Source of the DNA: a virus
Lineage: Duplodnaviria > Heunggongvirae > Uroviricota > Caudoviricetes
Strand: one strand, 5' to 3'
DNA: 39,924 nt
IMG/VR virus record: IMGVR_UViG_2778261064_000020
Span: 1 to 39,924 of that record
Positions 1 to 38,916 of this stretch are shown here, piece by piece (positions within the stretch are counted from its first letter, which is position 1; each line of letters opens with the position of its first letter). The notes under the pieces were generated by a model. It was not told the DNA's origin. It did not search any database and saw only the letters and a program-made list of their open reading frames with translations. The position numbers and the translations under genes were made by a program.

Positions 1-1248
1 ATGGCACTGAATATACCATTCAGAAATGTGTACTATCGTTTTGCATCCAGTTACTCATTTCTCTTTTTTATTTCCTGGTCGCTGTGGTGGTCGTTATACG
101 CTATTTGGCTGAAAGGACATCTAGGGTTGACTGGGACGGAATTAGGTACACTTTATTCGGTCAACCAGTTTACCAGTATTCTATTTATGATGGTCTACGG
201 CATCGTCCAGGATAAACTCGGTCTGAAGAAACCGCTTATCTGGTGTATGAGTTTCATCCTGGTCTTGACCGGACCGTTTATGATTTACGTTTATGAACCG
301 TTACTGCAAAGCAATTTTTCTGTAGGTCTAATTTTGGGGGCGCTCTTTTTTGGCTTGGGGTATCTGGCGGGCTGCGGTCTGCTTGATAGCTTCACCGAAA
401 AAATGGCACGAAATTTTCATTTCGAATATGGAACAGCGCGCGCCTGGGGATCTTTTGGCTATGCGATTGGCGCGTTCTTTGCTGGCATATTTTTCAGTAT
501 CAGTCCCCATATCAACTTCTGGTTGGTTTCGCTATTTGGCGCTGTATTTATGATGATCAACATGCGTTTTAAATATCAGGATCAGCAGTGCGTAGCGGCA
601 GATGCGGGAGGGGTAAAAAAAGAGGATTTTATTGCAGTTTTCAAGGATCGAAACTTCTGGATTTTCGTCATATTTATTGTGGGGACGTGGTCTTTCTATA
701 ACATTTTTGATCAACAGCTCTTTCCTGTTTTTTATGCAGGTTTATTCGAATCACACGATGTAGGAACGCGCCTGTATGGTTATCTCAACTCATTCCAGGT
801 TGTACTCGAAGCGCTGTGCATGGCCATTATTCCTTTCTTTGTTAATCGGGTAGGGCCAAAAAATGCATTACTTATCGGTGTTGTGATTATGGCGTTGCGT
901 ATTCTTTCCTGCGCACTGTTCGTTAATCCCTGGATTATTTCATTAGTGAAGCTGTTACATGCCATTGAGGTTCCACTGTGTGTCATTTCCGTCTTCAAAT
1001 ACAGCGTGGCAAACTTTGATAAGCGCCTGTCGTCGACGATCTTTCTGATTGGTTTTCAAATTGCCAGTTCGTTGGGGATTGTGTTGCTTTCAACGCCGAC
1101 TGGAATACTTTTTGACCATGCAGGTTACCAGACGGTTTTCTTCGTAATTTCGGGTATTGTCTGCCTGATGTTGTTATTTGGCATTTTCTTCCTGAGTAAA
1201 AAACGTGAGCAAATGGTGATGGAAACGCCTGTACCTTCTGCAATATAG
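1..1248 (+). CDS. cscB: Sucrose:H+ symporter, LacY/oligosaccharide-H+ symporter family MFS permease
   Basis: 415-aa ORF; N-terminus MALNIPFRN.YYRFASSYSFLFF and overall LacY-like 12-TM layout match CscB as I recall it; csc locus is known to lie next to argW in sucrose-positive E. coli. Confidence 0.8.
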   Translation: MALNIPFRNVYYRFASSYSFLFFISWSLWWSLYAIWLKGHLGLTGTELGTLYSVNQFTSILFMMVYGIVQDKLGLKKPLIWCMSFILVLTGPFMIYVYEPLLQSNFSVGLILGALFFGLGYLAGCGLLDSFTEKMARNFHFEYGTARAWGSFGYAIGAFFAGIFFSISPHINFWLVSLFGAVFMMINMRFKYQDQQCVAADAGGVKKEDFIAVFKDRNFWIFVIFIVGTWSFYNIFDQQLFPVFYAGLFESHDVGTRLYGYLNSFQVVLEALCMAIIPFFVNRVGPKNALLIGVVIMALRILSCALFVNPWIISLVKLLHAIEVPLCVISVFKYSVANFDKRLSSTIFLIGFQIASSLGIVLLSTPTGILFDHAGYQTVFFVISGIVCLMLLFGIFFLSKKREQMVMETPVPSAI

Positions 1249-1677: not shown

Positions 1678-1698
1678 GATAAATGGTGTCCCCTGCAG
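1678..1698. repeat. Prophage att core copy (partial duplicate of argW 3' end), GATAAATGGTGTCCCCTGCAG
   Basis: Exact 21-bp direct repeat of 38836-38856, which overlaps the 3' end of tRNA-Arg; read directly from the sequence. Confidence 0.85.
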
Positions 1699-5734: not shown

Positions 5735-6623
5735 CCTCCAGTTTCGCTTTGCATTCTATGTAAATGGCTTGTACGTTCTGCTGCAATTTCATTCCAGATG
5801 TCAGGCGATATGCTTCTGCAAAATATCGCTTCAAATCATCCATGTTTTCTGCCTGAGCCATTTCATCGCAAAGAAGTTGTGCTTTATCCATTATTTCCTG
5901 CTGGCGTTTCCGTTCATCTTCGCGGATATCTTCCTCTGATTTGTGCGGCATAACTGGTTCGGTCCACACGCCTTCTTCTTCGTTTAGTACGTGAATAGCA
6001 CTATCAAGGCGTGATGCCTTAGGCCAATACTTGCTTGCACGCTTTACGACCGTCTTTCGCGCCATCTCATTCCAGTGATTTACCCATGGTCCTTTATCGC
6101 TGAATGCTGCCTTGCTTGTTTTCCTTACAGCCTCAATTTCAGCCAGACTCATCTCTTCCGTTAGATAATCACCTGCTGGCGTCTTAACTGTGCAGTAAAC
6201 GCCAACGATATCACCACGGTCACCGAAGGCGTTGTATTTATGGGTTGGTGCTTTATCAAGCCCGTTTGACTCATAGGTATCGTTAGCATGAACAAGTTTT
6301 GCCTGACCCCATGAGATAACACCAGACTCCATTGCAATATGGAGCAATCCCATATAGCTGATATCAAGGCACACCATGCCGTCGCGAGGAACCAGATAAG
6401 CCAGTTTGCTGGCCGGGTTTAAGGTGATGCCGATCGCCGCAACATTGATGATGGCGTTCTGTGCGCTGGTTGGATTTGCCAGTGCTGTTTTAGCCAGGTA
6501 ATCGTTTTTCTGGAAATACTGAATTGCAAACTGGCTTTCCTTAGCCCATGTCACCGTCTGTTCAGTCAATGCTCCGCAGAATAACTGCTCCTGCTGTTTA
6601 ACGAATTCAACGATATTGCTCAT
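5712..6623 (-). CDS. recT: RecT-family single-strand annealing recombinase
   Basis: 303 aa; motif GPWVNHWNEMARKTVVKRASKYWP closely parallels Rac RecT GPWVTHWEEMAKKTAIRRLFKYLP. Confidence 0.8.
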   Translation of the reverse strand: MSNIVEFVKQQEQLFCGALTEQTVTWAKESQFAIQYFQKNDYLAKTALANPTSAQNAIINVAAIGITLNPASKLAYLVPRDGMVCLDISYMGLLHIAMESGVISWGQAKLVHANDTYESNGLDKAPTHKYNAFGDRGDIVGVYCTVKTPAGDYLTEEMSLAEIEAVRKTSKAAFSDKGPWVNHWNEMARKTVVKRASKYWPKASRLDSAIHVLNEEEGVWTEPVMPHKSEEDIREDERKRQQEIMDKAQLLCDEMAQAENMDDLKRYFAEAYRLTSGMKLQQNVQAIYIECKAKLEVASEQTV

Positions 6624-6931
6624 GCAGCTTCTCCAAAAATGTGTCTGCGTTTGAATATTGCGAAGGCATATTCAGCCTTAACTCTTTCGGTTATTGCATC
6701 CCAGAACCATTCAGCGGCTTTTTTCTGATAGTTACAGTCATCATCTTCCAGCCAGTCGATAGCGTCCTTAGTGTGTTCATCTGGTTTATATGAGCGAAGC
6801 ATTTCGCTTATTGGGTCGCAACGTTTGCAGAGGCGATCAACTTCACTGTTGATTCGTTCGTAATCTTCATCAGTAAAACTTGCGATTATTTGCGATATTT
6901 CACGCTTATCATTCAGAGTCAGAATCATCAT
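6620..6931 (-). CDS. Hypothetical phage early protein
   Basis: 103-aa ORF with overlapping stop/start junctions to its neighbours. Confidence 0.5.
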   Translation of the reverse strand: MMILTLNDKREISQIIASFTDEDYERINSEVDRLCKRCDPISEMLRSYKPDEHTKDAIDWLEDDDCNYQKKAAEWFWDAITERVKAEYAFAIFKRRHIFGEAA

Positions 6932-7016
6932 CTTTCTCCTGTTCTTTGTGCTGATTGAGCATTTCTTTCATCTGACGAATGAATTCTTCGTCTGACCAGT
7001 TATCTGTAAAACTCAT
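6909..7016 (-). CDS. Small hypothetical protein (35 aa), translationally coupled
   Basis: Manual translation MSFTDNWSDEEFIRQMKEMLNQHKEQEKDDDSDSE; ATGA overlap with the kil-like ORF. Confidence 0.25.
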   Translation of the reverse strand: MSFTDNWSDEEFIRQMKEMLNQHKEQEKDDDSDSE

Positions 7017-7165
7017 TTCCTGCGATACCACGGAAGGTTGATAGCTGATTTCATCGCTTTATTTGCTTCAAGCCACATTTTTGAATCACCAATAAACCTG
7101 GCTATTACTGCTTTGTTTTGTGCTGCACGAAGCATCTGGTGATTGATGGCTATTTCATTGCGCAT
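7013..7165 (-). CDS. kil: Kil-like small protein (host cell-division inhibitor family)
   Basis: 50-aa ORF; ARFIGDSKMWLEA resembles lambda Kil ATFIGDEKMFREA as I recall it; located next to a cIII-like ORF as in lambda. Confidence 0.45.
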   Translation of the reverse strand: MRNEIAINHQMLRAAQNKAVIARFIGDSKMWLEANKAMKSAINLPWYRRK

Positions 7166-7284
7166 AACGCCTCCAGTTGTTTCTTTGCTGCTCTGATTAA
7201 TTGTTTAACTCGGCGTGATAATTCAGATTCGTGCGGGTAGAAAGCGGACATGACGCCGCTACCCGCGAGCTGAAAGTGCATCAT
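7150..7284 (-). CDS. cIII: CIII-like protein (FtsH/HflB inhibitor family)
   Basis: MMHFQLAGSGVMSAFYPHESELSRRVKQL resembles lambda CIII (MQYAIAGWPVAGCPSESLLERITRKL); AAGGAG ribosome-binding site 6-9 nt upstream; the longer ORF in the track (to 7389) is probably not used. Confidence 0.55.
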   Translation of the reverse strand: MMHFQLAGSGVMSAFYPHESELSRRVKQLIRAAKKQLEALCAMK

Positions 7285-7508
7285 GGGTAACTCCTTATAT
7301 TTGATTGCATAACGAAAACGCCTCGAATGAAGCGTTATTGGTATGCATATAAAAAGGCCCTCACACTGGAGGGCAAAGAAGATTTCCAATAATCAGAACA
7401 AGTCGGCTCCTGTTTGGTTACGAGCGACATTGCTCCGTGTATTCACTCGTTGGAATGAATACACAGTGCAGTGTTTATTCTGTTGTTTATGTCAAAAATA
7501 AAGGCCGA

Positions 7509-8132
7509 CTATGCGGCCTCGGAAGGAAGTCCAATCATCTTATTCAAATCTTCTACCCGTAAAGCAGGAAGTGCTGTACTTGCTTTATCTGCTTCTTTTG
7601 GTAGCAATTCTTTGCTTTCAGGCCAAACCTCAATAAGTCGCTTAACTGTTGTGACTGAGTTCAAAGCAGCCCATACATTTGATTCGATATCCTTTTTCTT
7701 GGCTTCAAGTTTTTGTTGCAATGCGCAGATTTCATCAAACCTTTTTGTTATTTCGTGTTCTGCGCTAAACATGCATTTATCTTTGTTCGGAGTAGGGAGC
7801 AATATATCTTCGCCGTTGCCGTCTTTCCCATATGAAAGCCATCCAACCCTTCTGCCAGATACAGTCAGATAAATTGAAGTAGAACGAACATCGTATGAGT
7901 AAAATGAACATCCAATCTTTCCAAGTTCTTCACTTATAGCTACCAACTTGGATGATAACTGATTCACTTCCTCAGTTTTCTTTTTACCGCCAAACGCAAT
8001 AACTCTGGCGTCAAGTGCAAGCTGGTTCTTTAACTTTGTTACTTCTTCAAGTTCAGTGAAAACCCCAGACTTAATTAAAGCGTTACGAGCGATTTCCTCT
8101 TTCATTCTCGTAGTTAAGCGGATTGATGACAT
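7509..8132 (-). CDS. Hypothetical protein in the N-cIII intergenic slot (lambda ral/sieB/ea10 position)
   Basis: 207 aa starting MSSIRLTTRMKEE with a GAGG ribosome-binding site; soluble, no recognisable motif. Confidence 0.55.
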   Translation of the reverse strand: MSSIRLTTRMKEEIARNALIKSGVFTELEEVTKLKNQLALDARVIAFGGKKKTEEVNQLSSKLVAISEELGKIGCSFYSYDVRSTSIYLTVSGRRVGWLSYGKDGNGEDILLPTPNKDKCMFSAEHEITKRFDEICALQQKLEAKKKDIESNVWAALNSVTTVKRLIEVWPESKELLPKEADKASTALPALRVEDLNKMIGLPSEAA

Positions 8133-8143
8133 ATTAATTCCTC

Positions 8144-8470
8144 TCAAATAAGTGGTTTGCTGCCTAATTTCATTTTCTGGCGACCAACACAAGTCACACC
8201 CATTTCACTGCGTGGCTTGCTGTACCATGTGCGCTGATTCTTGCGCTCAATACGTTGCAGGTTGCTTTCAATCTGTTCGTGGTATTCAGCCAGTACCGTA
8301 AGGTCTATCGGATTCAGTGCGCTTTCTACTCGTGATTTCGGTTTGCGATTCAGCGAGAGAATAGGGCGGTTAACTGGTTTTGCGCTTACCCCAACCAACA
8401 GGGGATTTGCTGCTTTCCATTGAGCCTGTTTCTCTGCGCGACGTTCGCGGCGGCGTGCTTGTGCATCCAT
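8144..8470 (-). CDS. N: Antitermination protein N
   Basis: MDAQARRRERRAEKQAQWKAANPLLVGVSAKPVNRPILSLNRKPKSRVESALNPIDLTVLAEYH... is near-identical to lambda N as recalled (arginine-rich motif). Confidence 0.85.
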   Translation of the reverse strand: MDAQARRRERRAEKQAQWKAANPLLVGVSAKPVNRPILSLNRKPKSRVESALNPIDLTVLAEYHEQIESNLQRIERKNQRTWYSKPRSEMGVTCVGRQKMKLGSKPLI

Positions 8471-8580
8471 CTGAATTCTCCTGTCAGTTAGCTTTGAGTA
8501 ACGCGCCGTGATGCTTATCTCCACGGTTGCTGTCTTGCAGCTGCATTTCGCGCTACTCAAAGCTTTCTGCTTTGAATGCT

Positions 8581-32888: not shown

Positions 32889-33374
32889 CTACCTGATATT
32901 ACTGCTACTGTTGCATGTTACCGTGTTTCCAAATCCTGAATTGCAGTTTGTATATGTGTCAACGCGTGTTGGGTAAGGTTGAGTTATAACAGGCTGGCGC
33001 GCTTTTTGCTCGATCGCTTGCATTGTGTTTACAGCCTGATAATTCAATAAAGCCTGCTGGAATGCTTGGCTTTGTGCTATTTGTTGTGCTTGTTCTTGGC
33101 TTTGTAATTGAACATAAAGATTCTGAAGTTCAAGTCTTGCCTGTGTGTCACTTATCTTGCCTTCATCGACACCTTGCCCGAGCATCTTCGCAGCAAGGAC
33201 ATACAGCTTAGGTGTTGGTGCTGATGCCATGCGAGAGTCGTTCTTCAAGCTGGCATCAAGGCAATTAGCCATATCGCTAAGCTTTGGATAGCGTTGCTCG
33301 CAACTTGCCTGATAGTCGCTTACTTTTGCGCACCCAGCCAGCAGAAGCGGGATAATTAACAGTGATTTTTTCAT
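32889..33374 (-). CDS. Lipoprotein of unknown function (moron in the sieA slot)
   Basis: Start at MKKSLLIIPLLLAGC with AAGGAGAG ribosome-binding site; signal peptide plus lipobox LLAGC; Gln-rich helical middle; Cys-containing C-terminus. Confidence 0.6.
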   Translation of the reverse strand: MKKSLLIIPLLLAGCAKVSDYQASCEQRYPKLSDMANCLDASLKNDSRMASAPTPKLYVLAAKMLGQGVDEGKISDTQARLELQNLYVQLQSQEQAQQIAQSQAFQQALLNYQAVNTMQAIEQKARQPVITQPYPTRVDTYTNCNSGFGNTVTCNSSSNIR

Positions 33375-33408
33375 ATAATTAACTCTCCTTAGTTTTGCGC
33401 AGGATACC

Positions 33409-33774
33409 ATGAAAAAAGTTAACATTGGAAACGTACCAAAGATGCTCGTACCGCTCTTTGAGAGCGGTACAATTGTGTTTTGTAGAGACTTTCCAGAATG
33501 GCAACGCCTGCATCAAAAACTTGGCGTTGACGTGCATGACTCGGACGCCAACGGAGCGTCTCATACAATGAGTAGCGAGAATGGTGTTTTGCATGTGATA
33601 GGCGTGTTCAATGGCAAACTATCTACTATTGCCCATGAGTGCGCTCACATGGCATTCGATATCTGCTCAAGGGTAGGTGTTGATGTTGAACCAGGAAGAG
33701 CCAACGAGACTTACTGCTACTTAATGAGCAGGCTTGTTGAGTTCTGCGAGCGACATATCAAAAAGCCGGAGTGA
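33409..33774 (+). CDS. Small HExxH-motif protein, putative Zn-metallopeptidase-like
   Basis: 121 aa; IAHECAHMAFD contains HExxH with a Glu 19 residues downstream (gluzincin-like spacing); AGGA ribosome-binding site; divergent from the lipoprotein gene with only 34 nt between start codons. Confidence 0.5.
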   Translation: MKKVNIGNVPKMLVPLFESGTIVFCRDFPEWQRLHQKLGVDVHDSDANGASHTMSSENGVLHVIGVFNGKLSTIAHECAHMAFDICSRVGVDVEPGRANETYCYLMSRLVEFCERHIKKPE

Positions 33775-34066: not shown

Positions 34067-34318
34067 TCAGGTGGTTTTTTTGTACAAATCCTTCAGCGTA
34101 TCAAACACCATCTTCTTAACAAGATCTGACTGCTCATCAGCGAGTCGTTCTGCATCGTCACGATATCCAGTCACAGGCGATGGTTTTGATAGAGCATCTT
34201 GGACGATTTGTAACAACTCGGAGTTCATTGATCTCCCATTCGCCTCCGCCCTGAATTTTAATTTCTCCCTTACTTCCATAGGCATACGGAAGTTAAAGTG
34301 CGGATCATCTCTAGCCAT
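34067..34318 (-). CDS. mnt: Mnt repressor (ribbon-helix-helix, immI)
   Basis: 83 aa MARDDPHFNFRMPMEVREKLKFRAEANGRSMNSELLQIVQDALSKPSPVTGYR..., P22 Mnt. Confidence 0.9.
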   Translation of the reverse strand: MARDDPHFNFRMPMEVREKLKFRAEANGRSMNSELLQIVQDALSKPSPVTGYRDDAERLADEQSDLVKKMVFDTLKDLYKKTT

Positions 34319-34408
34319 GCCATCACTCCAAGTTAGTGTGTTGACATGATAGAAGCACTCTACTATATTCTCAATAGGTCCACGGTGGACCTATATTGTG
34401 AGGTGAAT

Positions 34409-34570
34409 ATGAAAGGAATGAGCAAGATGCCGCAGTTCAATTTGCGGTGGCCTAAAGAAGTATTGGATTTGGTACGCAAGGTGGCGGAAGAGAATGGTCG
34501 GTCTGTTAACTCTGAGATTTATCAGAGAGTAATGGAAAGCTTTAAGAAGGAAGGGCGCATTGGCGCGTAA
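34409..34570 (+). CDS. arc: Arc repressor (ribbon-helix-helix, immI)
   Basis: [54 protein letters not shown]22 Arc; the track ORF has a spurious N-terminal extension. Confidence 0.9.
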
Positions 34571-34638
34571 AGTTGAAGCCCCAACTGCTGGAACAGTCAG
34601 GGCTTCGGTTGTCAGTAAATCCGTGGAGAAAAACCAAC

Positions 34639-35574
34639 ATGAATAGTATAGCAATTTTAGAAGCAGTGAACACCTCTTACGTACCATTCAACGGTCAGCA
34701 AATTATCACCGCCATGGCTGCCGGAGTTGCATATGTTGCGATGAAGCCAATCGTTGAAAACCTTGGAATGAGCTGGTCAACGCAGCAAACAAAACTCATG
34801 AAGCAGATTAGCAAATTCAACTGTGTTCATATGAACATGGTTGCCGCTGATGGGAAGCTTCGTAAGCTACTCTGCCTTCCTTTGAAGAAGTTAAATGGAT
34901 GGCTGTTCAGCATCAACCCTGAGAAAGTTCGTGCTGACATCCGTGATAAACTGATTCAGTACCAGGAGGAATGCTTTAGCGTGCTGCATGACTACTGGAC
35001 TAAAGGCCATGTAGTTAACCCACGCAAAGCTAAAAAGGCGTTGCCGGGTAAAATCACCACTGAACAGCAGGAAGCCATTAAACAACTCGTCATGAGTCGC
35101 GGTCAGTCTCTGCCAAAAGAAAAACAGGCTAAGGCGATGATCACCATGTGGTCGTCACTGAAATCCCATTTTGGATGTTCGTACAAAGAAATCAGTGAGG
35201 AGCAGTTTACAGAAGCACTGTCACTTGCAGCTCGAGTTCCACTTGAAGGCGAGTTTATCGGCAAACAAGAGAAGAAAGCAAACGAGCTTTCTGCAAAAGA
35301 AGCAAACAGCCTTGTATGGTTATGGGATTATGCTAACCGTTCACAGGCATTATTCCGCGAACTGTATCCGGCGCTAAAACAAATTCAATCGAACTATTCC
35401 GGCAGATGCTACGACTACGGTCATGAATTCTCGTATGTTATCGGAATGGCGAGAGACGTTTTAATAAACCACACACGAGATATTGATATTAATGAGCCAG
35501 ACGGACCAACGAATCTTTCCGCATGGATGAGACTTAAGAATAAAGAATTACCTCCTTCAGTACATAACTACTGA
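34639..35574 (+). CDS. ant: Antirepressor Ant
   Basis: [53 protein letters not shown]... matches the P22 Ant N-terminus. Confidence 0.85.
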
Positions 35575-35593
35575 CAGATAACCAACGCAACGA

Positions 35594-35617
35594 CCCAGCT
35601 TCGGCTGGGTTTTTTTA
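35594..35617 (+). terminator. Rho-independent terminator after ant
   Basis: CCCAGC-TTCG-GCTGGG followed by TTTTTTTT. Confidence 0.75.
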
Positions 35618-35674: not shown

Positions 35675-37435
35675 ATGACAGACATTACAGCCAATGTTGT
35701 AATTGGGATGCCTTCGCAACTCTTCACTATGGCTCGTTCTTTTAAAGCCGTAGCCAATGGCAAAATTTATATCGGTAAAATTGACACTGACCCGGTAAAT
35801 CCAGAAAACCAGATTCAGGTTTATGTAGAGAATGAAGACGGCTCTCACGTTCCTGTATCGCAACCAATCATCATTAACGCTGCTGGTTACCCGGTATATA
35901 ACGGACAGATTGCCAAGTTCGTAACTGTGCAAGGCCATTCTATGGCTGTTTATGATGCGTATGGTGCACAGCAGTTCTATTTTCCCAGCGTTCTAAAATA
36001 TGACCCAGACCAGTTCAAATATCAGCTATCAGGTGCTGGGGGCGCATCGATGATTGGAACGGAAAGACAGGGTAATCTGCAAGAAGTTGCGAATGCAATA
36101 AATACAAGTAAAAACATAGGTGAATTTAATTCAAATATAAATAATTTACTTGCTCATGTTACCGATTCAATTATTTCAGACGATTCATTTATTATACCAT
36201 CATTTGCCACTTTAAGTGGCGCTCCTGGATTTCTTACAGGGTTCATTGGAACTACGTATTCAAAGAATAAAACAATACGTAAATCCAGCAACACATCTGC
36301 AACCCTTACCAACCAGGACCCTAATGCAGGAAGCCAAACTGTTGATGCCGTTGTTTATCAAGATCCTGCATGGCCTAATGGATCTGTTTTTCCGCAGAAA
36401 ACAACTATAAAAAATATTACACTGGAGGGTAATTCAGCCTCAAGCAAGAACGATGCGGGAATATTTGTTCTTCAAGGTGGTGTTTTAGATATCGAGAACG
36501 TTGATGTAATCAATTGCCGAAATGCGTTTTGGGGAAAGGATATCTGGCAAAGCAGTATAGCGAGAGTGTTTTCTAATGATGGAAAAATCAGGATTGATGG
36601 CGGCACGTCTGTAACTCTGAGAGGTTGCGGATTAGCGTCAAGTGACACCACCAGGCCTGGGGCATTTGATTTAAATAATCTAAAGTATTCCTCACTGATA
36701 AACTGCACATCAGATAACACAACAAATACGGCATTCTCATTCAATGGTTGTCATGGGATTGTAGTAGATGCATGTGGTTGTGAGGGTGCAGGAACAACAA
36801 CCGCAGATACTGCTACAGCACTAAACTTTATCGATAACAACCATGGCATCATTGTTAATAGTTTTGTTTGCGTACCAGTTGTAGGCCAAGGGCCAGCAAT
36901 TATAGCGTTTGGTTCTAATAACGATGTGATCATTAACAATCCAGAACTTGCATTTGGCATTACCTATAATGTTGATATTTATATTCACGGACCGGGTAAT
37001 AGAATAACTATAAATGGTGGAAGATTTGGAGCAAATGGAGATGCTCTTCCGATTATTGTTGCGTCAGACAGTGCTGTAGGATCAATAGTCATATACAATT
37101 CAAATAATGGCATTAGACATTTATACTCAGTGAAAGCAGCAGGAATTGTGACTCAAATACAGGAATTCAGGCCTATAGTTTCAGCTGTAATTGATGGGAC
37201 AACCGGAAACGTAACAAAGGGATATGGAGTTGACTCAGTTCAAAAAACAGGCGATGGGGCCTATACAGTACATTTCACAAGTCAAGTGGCAACTGGATAT
37301 TCAATCCAGCAATTAAGTTCGGTTGGATTTGTTCAGGTTGCATCATTTACTGATAACGCAATAGCATTTACGCTGCTGAATCCTAGCCTGACAGCTACTG
37401 ATTCGTCATTCTCAATAAATATAAATGGCTGGTAG
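35675..37435 (+). CDS. Tailspike protein: P22 gp9-type N-terminal head-binding domain fused to a distinct beta-helix receptor-binding domain
   Basis: N-terminal ~110 aa ([11 protein letters not shown]...[35 protein letters not shown]...[12 protein letters not shown]) match P22 gp9; the remaining ~470 aa are unrelated and rich in N/G/I/V repeats, typical of a beta-helix. Confidence 0.85.
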
Positions 37436-37522
37436 AAATGACATAATGAGACAAAACTCTGGTACACAAAGCTTTGCACTGGATTGCAAGTCTTTGTTCT
37501 ATTCGATAGGGGTTAAGGTGGA

Positions 37523-38680
37523 TCACTCCACCTTTTCATCAAGCCAATCTGCCCACCACTGCATCATTTCTCTGCGCTTGTCGAGATACTGAGCGTGGTT
37601 GTAAATCCCGCGCACAGATCCGCCGTTGGCATGTGCCAGTTGCACTTCAATAGCATCAGCAGGCCATTCGTGCTCGTTCATAATCGTGCTGAATTCATGC
37701 CTGAATCCGTGACCGCTTTCCAGCCCTTCATAGCCAATTTGTTTGATCACAAGCAATACCGCGTTCTCGCAGATTGGCTTCTTCTTATCGTTGCGCCCGG
37801 CAAAAACAAACTCTGAGACTGGTTTGGTGATTGAGCTTAGCGTAGTGAGAAGTTCAACCACCTGGTCTGACATCGGGACCACATGAATTTTGCGTCCCTT
37901 CATCACACTGGCGTCGATGGTGATAATCCTGTTTTCAAAATCGACGTTCTTCCATAGCATGGAACGAAGCTCTTTTGTTCTTAGGGCTGTGTAGCGTAAA
38001 ACTTTGGTCGCAATGAGCGATACGATACTTCCTGAAAATGTTGCCAGTGCTTTGTTGAATGCCGGGATCTGGTCTGCAGGAAGAAACGGGAAGTTCTTCT
38101 TGCGGTATCCCTTCATGGCGTCAGCAAGGTCAGGTGCTGGGTTATATTTAGCCCTTCCGGTGACAATAGCGTAACGGAAAACCTCGCCGCATCTTCTGCG
38201 GGCTTTATTTGCTCGCTCCATTGCACCGCGATCTTCAAATCTGCGGATTACTTCCAGCAGTTGCATCGGCTCAATATCCTGAATCTCAAGACCGCCGATG
38301 ATGGGTAAAATGTCGTCATCAAACATTTTTGCAAGTTCAGTCGCATACCCTACTGACCAGACTTGCTTCTTGTGTTCGTACCATTCCTTGTAAATTGCAC
38401 TAAAGGAATTGTTGTTAGACGAAGCCTTTTTCGCCTTTACCGGATCGATGCCAACCGAGATGTCTTTCCTCGCAGTCCATGCCTTATCCCTTGCTTCCTG
38501 CAAAGTCATAAGCGGATATTTTCCTACGGTCAGGATTTTCTCCTTACCGTCAATCTTGTAGCGAAGCTGCCATACCTTTTTCCCTGATACAGGGACATAA
38601 AGGTACAGGCCATTACCATCGAGAAGGCGGTATGGTTTTTCTTTCGGCTTTGCTGCTTCAATCTGCTTAACGGTGAGCAT
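37523..38680 (-). CDS. intS: Tyrosine integrase, P4/IntS type (argW-specific)
   Basis: Matches E. coli IntS as recalled (MLTVKQIEAAKPKEKPYRLLDGNGLYLYVPVSGKKVWQLRYKIDGKEK...); C-terminal R...HGFRH...Y catalytic residues; an in-frame upstream Met at 38716 is also possible. Confidence 0.85.
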   Translation of the reverse strand: MLTVKQIEAAKPKEKPYRLLDGNGLYLYVPVSGKKVWQLRYKIDGKEKILTVGKYPLMTLQEARDKAWTARKDISVGIDPVKAKKASSNNNSFSAIYKEWYEHKKQVWSVGYATELAKMFDDDILPIIGGLEIQDIEPMQLLEVIRRFEDRGAMERANKARRRCGEVFRYAIVTGRAKYNPAPDLADAMKGYRKKNFPFLPADQIPAFNKALATFSGSIVSLIATKVLRYTALRTKELRSMLWKNVDFENRIITIDASVMKGRKIHVVPMSDQVVELLTTLSSITKPVSEFVFAGRNDKKKPICENAVLLVIKQIGYEGLESGHGFRHEFSTIMNEHEWPADAIEVQLAHANGGSVRGIYNHAQYLDKRREMMQWWADWLDEKVE

Positions 38681-38835
38681 GGGTAAAAATCCGGTGGGTA
38701 AAATTATTTTATCCACTTTTTACCCGTCATGGAGTGCGGCTGTCAACGATCTGACGCGAACCATGACGAACTGTGAATCTACGGAAGGCTTGATATTCAG
38801 GGGATTTTGCGGACTGGTACGGATGGAGGCGAACT

Positions 38836-38856
38836 GATAAATGGTGTCCCCTGCAG
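38836..38856. repeat. Prophage att core copy overlapping the argW 3' end
   Basis: Exact 21-bp direct repeat of 1678-1698. Confidence 0.85.
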
Positions 38857-38916
38857 GAATCGAACCTGCAATTAGCCCTTAGGAGGGGCTCGTTATATCC
38901 ATTTAACTAAGAGGAC
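38842..38916 (-). tRNA. argW: tRNA-Arg (anticodon CCU)
   Basis: Reverse complement reads GTCCTCTTAGTTAAATGGATATAACGAGCCCCTCCTAAGGGCTAATTGCAGGTTCGATTCCTGCAGGGGACACCA; canonical cloverleaf with CCT anticodon. Confidence 0.9.

Follow-up and report, generated by a model that had tools for sequence, protein, structure and literature searches.

A P22-like Escherichia prophage tailspike with a swapped, mobile beta-helix receptor cassette and a candidate O1 non-A O-antigen target

The IMG/VR virus record IMGVR_UViG_2778261064_000020, a stretch of 39,924 nucleotides (nt) here called the window over its whole length, contains an apparently complete ~37-kb P22-like (Lederbergvirus-type) prophage at argW, whose last late gene, after mnt/arc/ant in the P22-like virion gene cluster, encodes a tailspike of 586 amino acids (aa). 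There is hardly any doubt that this protein is a tailspike with a swapped beta-helix receptor cassette. The cassette is horizontally mobile: it occurs behind four kinds of N-terminus and in different phage groups, and it has recently been exchanged between P22-like prophages. Taken as a whole, the explanation that we favour, with somewhat better than even confidence, is that of a P22-like prophage tailspike carrying a mobile beta-helix cassette that probably targets an O1 non-A O-antigen.

P22-like (Lederbergvirus) tailspikes are chimeric as a rule, a constant anchor being followed by an interchangeable module (Pas et al., 2023; PMC10408124). The architecture of the window tailspike is thus the norm for the group, and it is the cassette itself, rare and uncharacterised, that is new. 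A preliminary description of this DNA had placed the gene exactly where the list of open reading frames (ORFs) has it, on the plus strand and with 586 codons before the stop; the frame opens with an ATG that has GGAG 9 nt upstream, and its product is identical to WP_241957486.1, annotated as [quoted passage not shown]. The same description had likened the first ~110 residues to P22 gp9. They do form the head-binding domain of PF09008, with 74% identity (83/112) to P22 gp9, but they are closer to Sf6 gp14 (94%, 106/113), so that the anchor is of the Sf6 type. By homology, residues 1–113 fasten the spike to the tail hub in the manner of Sf6 and P22; the N-terminus of Sf6 gp14 has been solved in situ on the tail (7sg7). 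The first ~340–360 nt of the gene are present at 90–96% identity in 1136 of 5426 complete Escherichia coli genomes, after which the sequences diverge.

As had been proposed, the residues beyond ~113 are unrelated to P22 gp9, and equally to the receptor domains of Sf6 and HK620. Among the Protein Data Bank (PDB) chains, a set that includes the full-length P22 and Sf6 tailspikes, phmmer gave no match past residue ~118–128 at E ≤ 1; the P22 and Sf6 chains were matched over aa 1–118 only, and HK620 was not found at this threshold. Searches of Pfam, PHROGs and NCBIfam returned nothing for residues 115–586 (no family, or noise only), PF09008 being the only Pfam match at E ≤ 1, with no Beta_helix, Pectate_lyase_3, glycosidase or lyase model; the Pfam scan of the tailspike likewise gave neither a Peptidase_S74 chaperone domain nor GH58 endosialidase domains. 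Phage PaulScherrer and IMG/VR homologues align from aa 114, at the start of a neck in which the motif L....GA..IGT is kept across 35 homologues. Alignments to the 44%-identity relatives stop at aa 499 and leave out the C-terminal beta-sandwich, so that the sandwich is exchangeable in its own right.

The right-handed beta-helix anticipated for the receptor part is borne out by an AlphaFold2 model and by fold-level structural matches. The model, a monomer built on 35 homologues, has a predicted local distance difference test (pLDDT) score of ~90 from residue 140 to the end, and the poor modelling of the N-terminus reflects only the small number of aligned sequences that include it. The cassette is predicted to consist of short neck helices (residues 111–119, 135–141 and 148–156), followed by short strands in a long stack and, at the end, a beta-sandwich, and it matches at the fold level the beta-helix carbohydrate enzymes of the pectin lyase-like superfamily (IPR011050). 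Capsule depolymerases from phages of Acinetobacter and Klebsiella head the structural matches, which also include CBA120 TSP2, HK620 and 9NA; with Acinetobacter Belisarius gp86 (PDB 24qi), AS12 gp42 (PDB 6eu4) and CBA120 TSP2 (5w6p) the identity is 12–14%, a superfamily-level likeness between proteins whose hosts and substrates differ. The "N/G/I/V-rich repeats" of the preliminary description held only in part. The composition of residues 141–586 is indeed enriched (N 9.9, G 10.3, I 10.1, V 7.8, S 9.9 and T 9.2%), but the repetition is confined to structural rungs: a self-BLASTP gives the self match only and thus no internal sequence repeats.

The window tailspike therefore resembles Sf6 gp14 (PDB 7sg7, 7ukj, 2vbk) and P22 gp9 in its anchor, in the position of its gene after the immI region, in the plan of anchor, beta-helix and C-terminal domain, and in its likely working mode as a trimeric O-antigen endoglycosidase. 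It differs from them past aa ~118, where sequence similarity is no longer detectable and the receptor part shares only the fold (~10–12% identity, Foldseek), as well as in its substrate, which is the S. flexneri Y O-antigen for Sf6 and Salmonella O:4/O:9 for P22. By analogy with P22, Sf6 and HK620, the cassette would trimerise, bind a surface polysaccharide along the helix and cleave it with carboxylates, and this cleavage would let the virion work its way down to the outer membrane. Seven carboxylates (D215, D224, D277, D308, D347, E370 and D434) are invariant in homologues down to 34% identity. Because they are invariant or nearly so and their members lie about one rung apart, the pairs D347/E370 and D308/D332 would be the best catalytic candidates.

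A cassette that binds glycan without cutting the backbone, either as a non-enzymatic adhesin or as a side-group esterase or deacetylase such as phage G7C gp63.1, is in our judgement quite improbable. The seven carboxylates stay invariant over that distance, and several have the one-rung spacing that is usual in beta-helix glycosidase sites; SGNH and esterase domains are absent; and the characterised P22-like tailspikes, those of P22, Sf6 and HK620, are endoglycosidases. What speaks for a non-cutting cassette is that no glycosidase or lyase sequence family matches it, and that many O16-dependent phages use non-enzymatic fibres (PMC11990801).

The predicted beta-helix also holds seven cysteines (window 36515–36871), at residues 281, 318, 344, 359, 367, 369 and 399, six of which are invariant in the 35 homologues, with a CGCE motif at 367–370. 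They could be an internal cysteine stack or another folding feature.

The mobility of the cassette is seen in the comparison with the prophage of E. coli ISHS7, the only one of the 5426 complete E. coli genomes in which the cassette is present, even by sensitive blastn. In blocks of 150 nt, the identity between the two is 92% from 35675 and 85% from 35825, then 98.6–100% from 35975, while the remainder of the two prophages is ~96% identical or unrelated; an anchor at 85–92% beside a cassette at 98.6–100% indicates that the cassette has recently been joined to two different anchor alleles. Its guanine-cytosine content is 39.5%, compared with 47.3% elsewhere in the prophage. With 46 clusters in a large protein database, the family is small, and the N-termini of 35 homologues are of several kinds: 12 carry PF18668 (TSP1/gp66-type adaptor), eight PF09008, two PF03906 (T7 tail-fibre N-terminus), and in 13 none is recognised. 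Relatives are carried by a myovirus of phi92 type, by siphoviruses of the Tunavirinae and by N4-like podoviruses, with identities of 61–65% for PaulScherrer, 51% for the clonal Tunavirinae and 36% for the N4-like F22 and E20, Pseudoalteromonas and Hafnia phages being distant; among 50,697 phage records the nearest relatives are at 65%, at 51% and then at or below 36%. A scan of IMG/VR gave three loci only, at 44–51% identity, and a family-alignment scan of the GTDB species-representative genomes gave 88 pattern matches, none of which was confirmed. The ISHS7 copy (NZ_CP092252.1; positions 6001–9097 of the locus taken from it) is split by an element of the insertion sequence (IS) family IS3 at about window position 37164 (aa ~497, at the start of the C-terminal sandwich), the flanks of the insertion overlapping by 7 nt.

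The expectation that the receptor specificity is unknown and may be new has held. No cassette relative among the phage records, whether PaulScherrer, the Tunavirinae or those at or below 36%, has an assigned receptor, and near-identity to a tailspike of known specificity was not found, the nearest match among the phage records being bas60_0027 (QXV83762.1) of PaulScherrer (Bas60, Justusliebigvirus). This closest named relative is 61% identical over aa 114–586 and 65% over the core, so that it belongs to the same subtype as the window cassette under the rule of at least 30% identity of Pas et al. (PMC10408124), and it is annotated only as "lateral tail fiber with hydrolase domains". As its target is not assigned, PaulScherrer gives no information on specificity; it differs from the window prophage in having the PF18668 adaptor, a 150-kb phi92-like myovirus genome and several receptor-binding proteins (RBPs). 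For the Tunavirinae relatives, the isolation host was the laboratory indicator strain DSM 12242, and only laboratory strains were infected. With laboratory hosts in the one case and several RBPs in the other, the hosts of the relatives offer no clue to the receptor. Pas et al. (2023; PMC10408124) assigned E. coli tailspike subtypes to 14 serogroups (O2, O8, O16, O18, 4s/O22, O26, O45, O77, O78, O103, O104, O111, O145 and O157), among which O1 is not included, and the text-form supplementary files of that study contain no mention of PaulScherrer, F22 or E20.

A clue comes instead from the lysogens. In Lederbergvirus prophages with a single RBP, the tailspike matches the O-serogroup of the lysogen (Pas et al. 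and work cited there; PMC10408124), and the window tailspike resembles the subtypes of that study in joining a conserved anchor to an exchangeable receptor domain of the kind that tracks this serogroup. An O-antigen is accordingly a likely receptor class. Within it, the serotypes of the lysogens point to the O-antigen of the O1 non-A variant cluster (CB11070/KY115223 type) as the most likely substrate, a proposal to which we give an even chance. The O-antigen cluster of ISHS7 reads rmlBDAC-wzx-mnaA-hyp-wzy-GT2-GT4, and its type of wzy is present in 13 of the 5426 complete E. coli genomes. One of the 13 carriers, L1PEag1, has been assigned to O1 because its wzy is 99% identical to the O1-variant allele KY115223 (PMC11298459), and the KY115223 type is the non-A variant O1 cluster described by Delannoy et al., which retains the synthesis of rhamnose (Rha), N-acetylglucosamine (GlcNAc) and N-acetylmannosamine (ManNAc) (PMC5293828). 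A reading of ISHS7 as classical O1A was rejected, its wzy being an O1 variant allele found in 13 genomes only (PMC11298459; PMC5293828).

Wherever they overlap, the window agrees at 100% identity with contig PTRP01000001.1 of GCA_002965585.1 and with two Sequence Read Archive (SRA) assemblies. Nine complete genomes match its 8.6-kb chromosomal flank at 100.0% identity, most E. coli standing at 90–95%, and eight of the nine belong to the 13 carriers of the O1-variant wzy. Those of the nine that are covered by PMC13064198 are described there as cryptic clade I, sequence type (ST) 485 and "OND:H45", the latter with an old version of SerotypeFinder; to judge from this flank, the window host is an Escherichia cryptic clade I/ST485-type strain. 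In E400634, a member of the flank-identical lineage, the O-cluster has the same layout, and its Wzx clusters with AQU71720.1 [E. coli O1:H12]. ISHS7 belongs to a different lineage from the window host (flank ~96.5–96.9% identical). A third copy of the tailspike (P0050; 98% identity) comes from an isolate listed at NCBI as "Escherichia coli O1", where it belongs to yet another prophage backbone, one with a lambda-type integrase. The cassette is thus present in three prophage backbones from as many host assemblies, for each of which there is evidence of O1, direct in ISHS7, by lineage in the window host and by label in the third, and the two hosts that could be placed, ISHS7 and the window host, are of different lineages.

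The ST485 clade I strains were published as "OND" (SerotypeFinder v1.1; PMC13064198, Table 1), yet they carry O1-variant alleles (Delannoy et al.) at both wzy and wzx, and would probably type as O1 with a current database.

The sugars listed for the O1 variants are L-Rha, GlcNAc and ManNAc, with no uronic acid (PMC5293828); since a lyase would need one, an enzyme acting on this polysaccharide would be a glycoside hydrolase and not a lyase. As a tentative proposal, to which we give slightly less than even chances, the cassette would be the first tailspike module to be identified for the O-antigen of E. coli O1 non-A (O1B/O1C-like, CB11070-type).

Several observations weigh against the O1 non-A target and the enzymatic role proposed here. 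The O-type of the window host comes from its lineage and was not read in GCA_002965585.1 itself: in the sister genome E400634, ~395 kb separate the O-cluster from argW, and the exact Wzx of the lineage matched four representative samples, GCA_002965585.1 not being among them; nor did the literature yield anything under the assembly and run accessions. One of the nine nearest genomes (24A16CRGN010) is without the O1-variant wzy, and the tailspike gene of ISHS7 is broken by the IS3 element. Close copies are also found outside E. coli: a 97%-identical tailspike (P0048; positions 10001–11761 of the locus taken from ERR9669727) in a P22-like prophage at an argW/yfdC-like site of Salmonella enterica subsp. 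diarizonae, a 93% copy in a Citrobacter-like host (CusS 86% identical to Citrobacter vs 75% to E. coli), and an 86% copy in another non-E. coli host, beside a hut operon, which E. coli is not known to carry. No link between a Salmonella O-antigen and E. coli O1 was found in the reviews consulted. Furthermore, the argW P22-like prophage of E400634 (NZ_CM128600.1; positions 7030–8958 of the locus taken from it), of the same lineage and O-cluster, carries an unrelated receptor module in a tailspike of 642 aa that has in common with the window tailspike only aa 1 to ~125; this module is present in two complete genomes only, one of them without the O1-variant wzy. With two unrelated modules in one O-type lineage, the correspondence between prophage module and O-type is not strictly one to one. 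Finally, the catalytic activity of the cassette, its trimeric state and its candidate active-site residues are all inferred, and Pfam offers no glycosidase or lyase model that fits.

The cross-genus copies, the module of E400634, the wzy-less neighbour and the untyped window assembly together keep alive a rival reading, unlikely in our view, in which the substrate is a capsule (K-antigen) or some other exopolysaccharide common to the hosts and the cassette acts as a capsule depolymerase, like the endosialidase tailspike of CUS-3. Copies at 86–97% in three genera are more easily explained by a shared capsule or exopolysaccharide than by a shared O-antigen, and the presence of two unrelated modules within one O-type lineage would fit it too. 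The top structural matches, being capsule depolymerases of Acinetobacter and Klebsiella phages, point the same way, but the likeness of beta-helix folds cannot separate O-antigen from capsule enzymes, as the matches to CBA120 TSP2, HK620 and 9NA illustrate. All three typable E. coli-group hosts are moreover of O1 type, and two of them share an O-cluster found in 13 of 5426 genomes. Endosialidases belong to GH58, have a beta-propeller fold and end in a C-terminal chaperone that is cleaved off. CUS-3, a K1-specific P22-like argW prophage (cited in PMC11990801), shares with the window element the kind of prophage, the integration site and the anchor principle; unlike the CUS-3 and K1F endosialidases, the window tailspike is modelled as a beta-helix with a beta-sandwich, and has no Peptidase_S74 by Pfam. 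Pas et al. report subtypes that span several O-serogroups, for which they suggest a K-antigen target (PMC10408124).

It is very improbable that the tailspike gene is a decaying, non-functional remnant in a cryptic prophage, although the K-12 element at the same site, CPS-53, is cryptic and the ISHS7 copy is interrupted by IS3. The window ORF of 586 aa is intact and identical in several independent assemblies, 17 cluster members have at least 90% identity, and an alignment of ten copies has a mean column identity of 96% and no frameshifts. Both attachment (att) cores are present, as are P22 head, tail and ejection genes identified by Pfam, lysis and terminase genes being recognised by ORF size and position only.

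The coordinates of the tailspike, its domains and the neighbouring features are collected in Table 1. On the locus identical to the window, the genes upstream of the tailspike belong to the Pfam families P22_Tail-4, Phage_stabilise, P22_gp7, Inj_translocase, Phage_P22_gp16, Arc/Mnt and P22 antirepressor. Downstream, the tailspike abuts the integrase gene with no gtr genes in between, as the preliminary description had noted: the two stops face each other 87 bp apart, and the spacer has no ORF and neither gtr nor oac genes. The integrase is annotated elsewhere with 385 aa (37523..38680) and is named intS in related genomes. In Sf6 and P22, oac or gtr genes lie between the tailspike and att; gtr genes beside the integrase are absent from ISHS7, E400634 and the Salmonella lysogen as they are from the window. 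Among the prophage ORFs scanned with Pfam or having precomputed Pfam families there was neither a gtr nor an oac gene, a number of ORFs of at least 100 aa at 11.3–21.3 kb (lysis, terminase, replication and others) having been left unscanned and assigned by size and position only; with none among the scanned ORFs, the phage is not expected to convert the O-antigen of its host.

Table 1. Coordinates in the window of the tailspike gene, its parts and the features around it.
Feature	Position	Strand	Evidence or remark
Tailspike gene, 586 aa + stop codon	35675..37435	+	ORF list
Head-binding (anchor) domain, aa 1–113	35675..36013	+	PF09008, E = 1.2e-65, whole profile covered
Linker/neck, aa 114–158	36014..36148	+	Homology to non-P22-like relatives begins at aa 114
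Predicted right-handed parallel beta-helix, aa ~159–490	36149..37144	+	Probable glycan-binding and catalytic body
C-terminal beta-sandwich domain, aa ~494–586	37154..37432	+	Eight predicted strands, pLDDT 80–93
Recently exchanged cassette	35975..37435	+	DNA identity to ISHS7 prophage
immI-like region upstream of tailspike	34067..35574	mixed	Pfam families on identical locus
mnt/arc	34067–34318	-	Pfam, identical locus
arc	34409–34570	+	Pfam, identical locus
Antirepressor	34639–35574	+	Pfam, identical locus
Terminator-like hairpin directly downstream of antirepressor	35592–35611		Terminator scan
Spacer, 87 bp, between converging tailspike and integrase genes	37436..37522		Sequence and ORF list
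IntS-type tyrosine integrase	37523..38716	-	PF00589, PF22022, PF13356
tRNA-Arg(CCT), argW, right-hand attachment site	38842..38916	-	ARAGORN
att core, right copy, 21 bp, GATAAATGGTGTCCCCTGCAG	38836–38856		Exact direct repeat; overlaps argW 3' end
att core, left copy, 21 bp, GATAAATGGTGTCCCCTGCAG	1678..1698	+	Exact direct repeat; with right copy brackets ~37-kb prophage

The left argW att core is in two pieces ~300 bp apart, one of 21 bp (1678–1698, equal to 38836–38856) and one of 16 bp (1992–2007, equal to 38856–38871), so that the left junction may be composite or rearranged, or an earlier element may have left a scar here. The prophage is flanked by yfdC on its right and by a permease gene of the LacY family on its left; the latter opens the window (1–1248, plus strand) and encodes a sugar/H+ symporter of 415 aa (E = 2e-191), which presumably resembles the cscB sucrose permease found beside argW in some E. 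coli. In the early left operon, an ORF of 227 aa (7509–8192, minus strand) directly downstream of the N-like antiterminator gene (8144–8560) matches the Pfam family Nmad5 (nucleotide modification associated domain 5; E = 2e-71) and may be a DNA- or nucleotide-modification moron. Two prophage tRNA genes, Asn(GTT) and Thr(TGT), at 16713–16868 on the plus strand, follow a ninG-like gene and lie upstream of ORFs provisionally read as lysis genes on size and position only. Between gp16 and the immI block lie two ORFs without a Pfam family (32889–33425, minus strand, and 33409–33774, plus strand), one of which has a lipoprotein-like signal (MKKSLLIIPLLLAGC), in the slot where P22-like phages often hold superinfection-exclusion or other accessory genes.

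These results leave the picture of tailspike function unchanged. They add a clean case of cassette exchange, with one module reused across four phage morphotype groups and present in three bacterial genera or more, and they give a rare and uncharacterised cassette a concrete, testable target in O1 non-A. Tailspike receptor modules decide which strains can be infected, and they find use in serotype prediction, in the retargeting of phages and tailocins and as glycan-cutting reagents. In the O1 variants the epitope is ManNAc branched on L-Rha (PMC5293828). If the proposed target is correct, the copies at 86–97% identity in Salmonella diarizonae and Citrobacter-like prophages would mark O-antigens of those genera that share this epitope, and the module would be a ready-made typing or engineering reagent for a serogroup without an assigned phage RBP.

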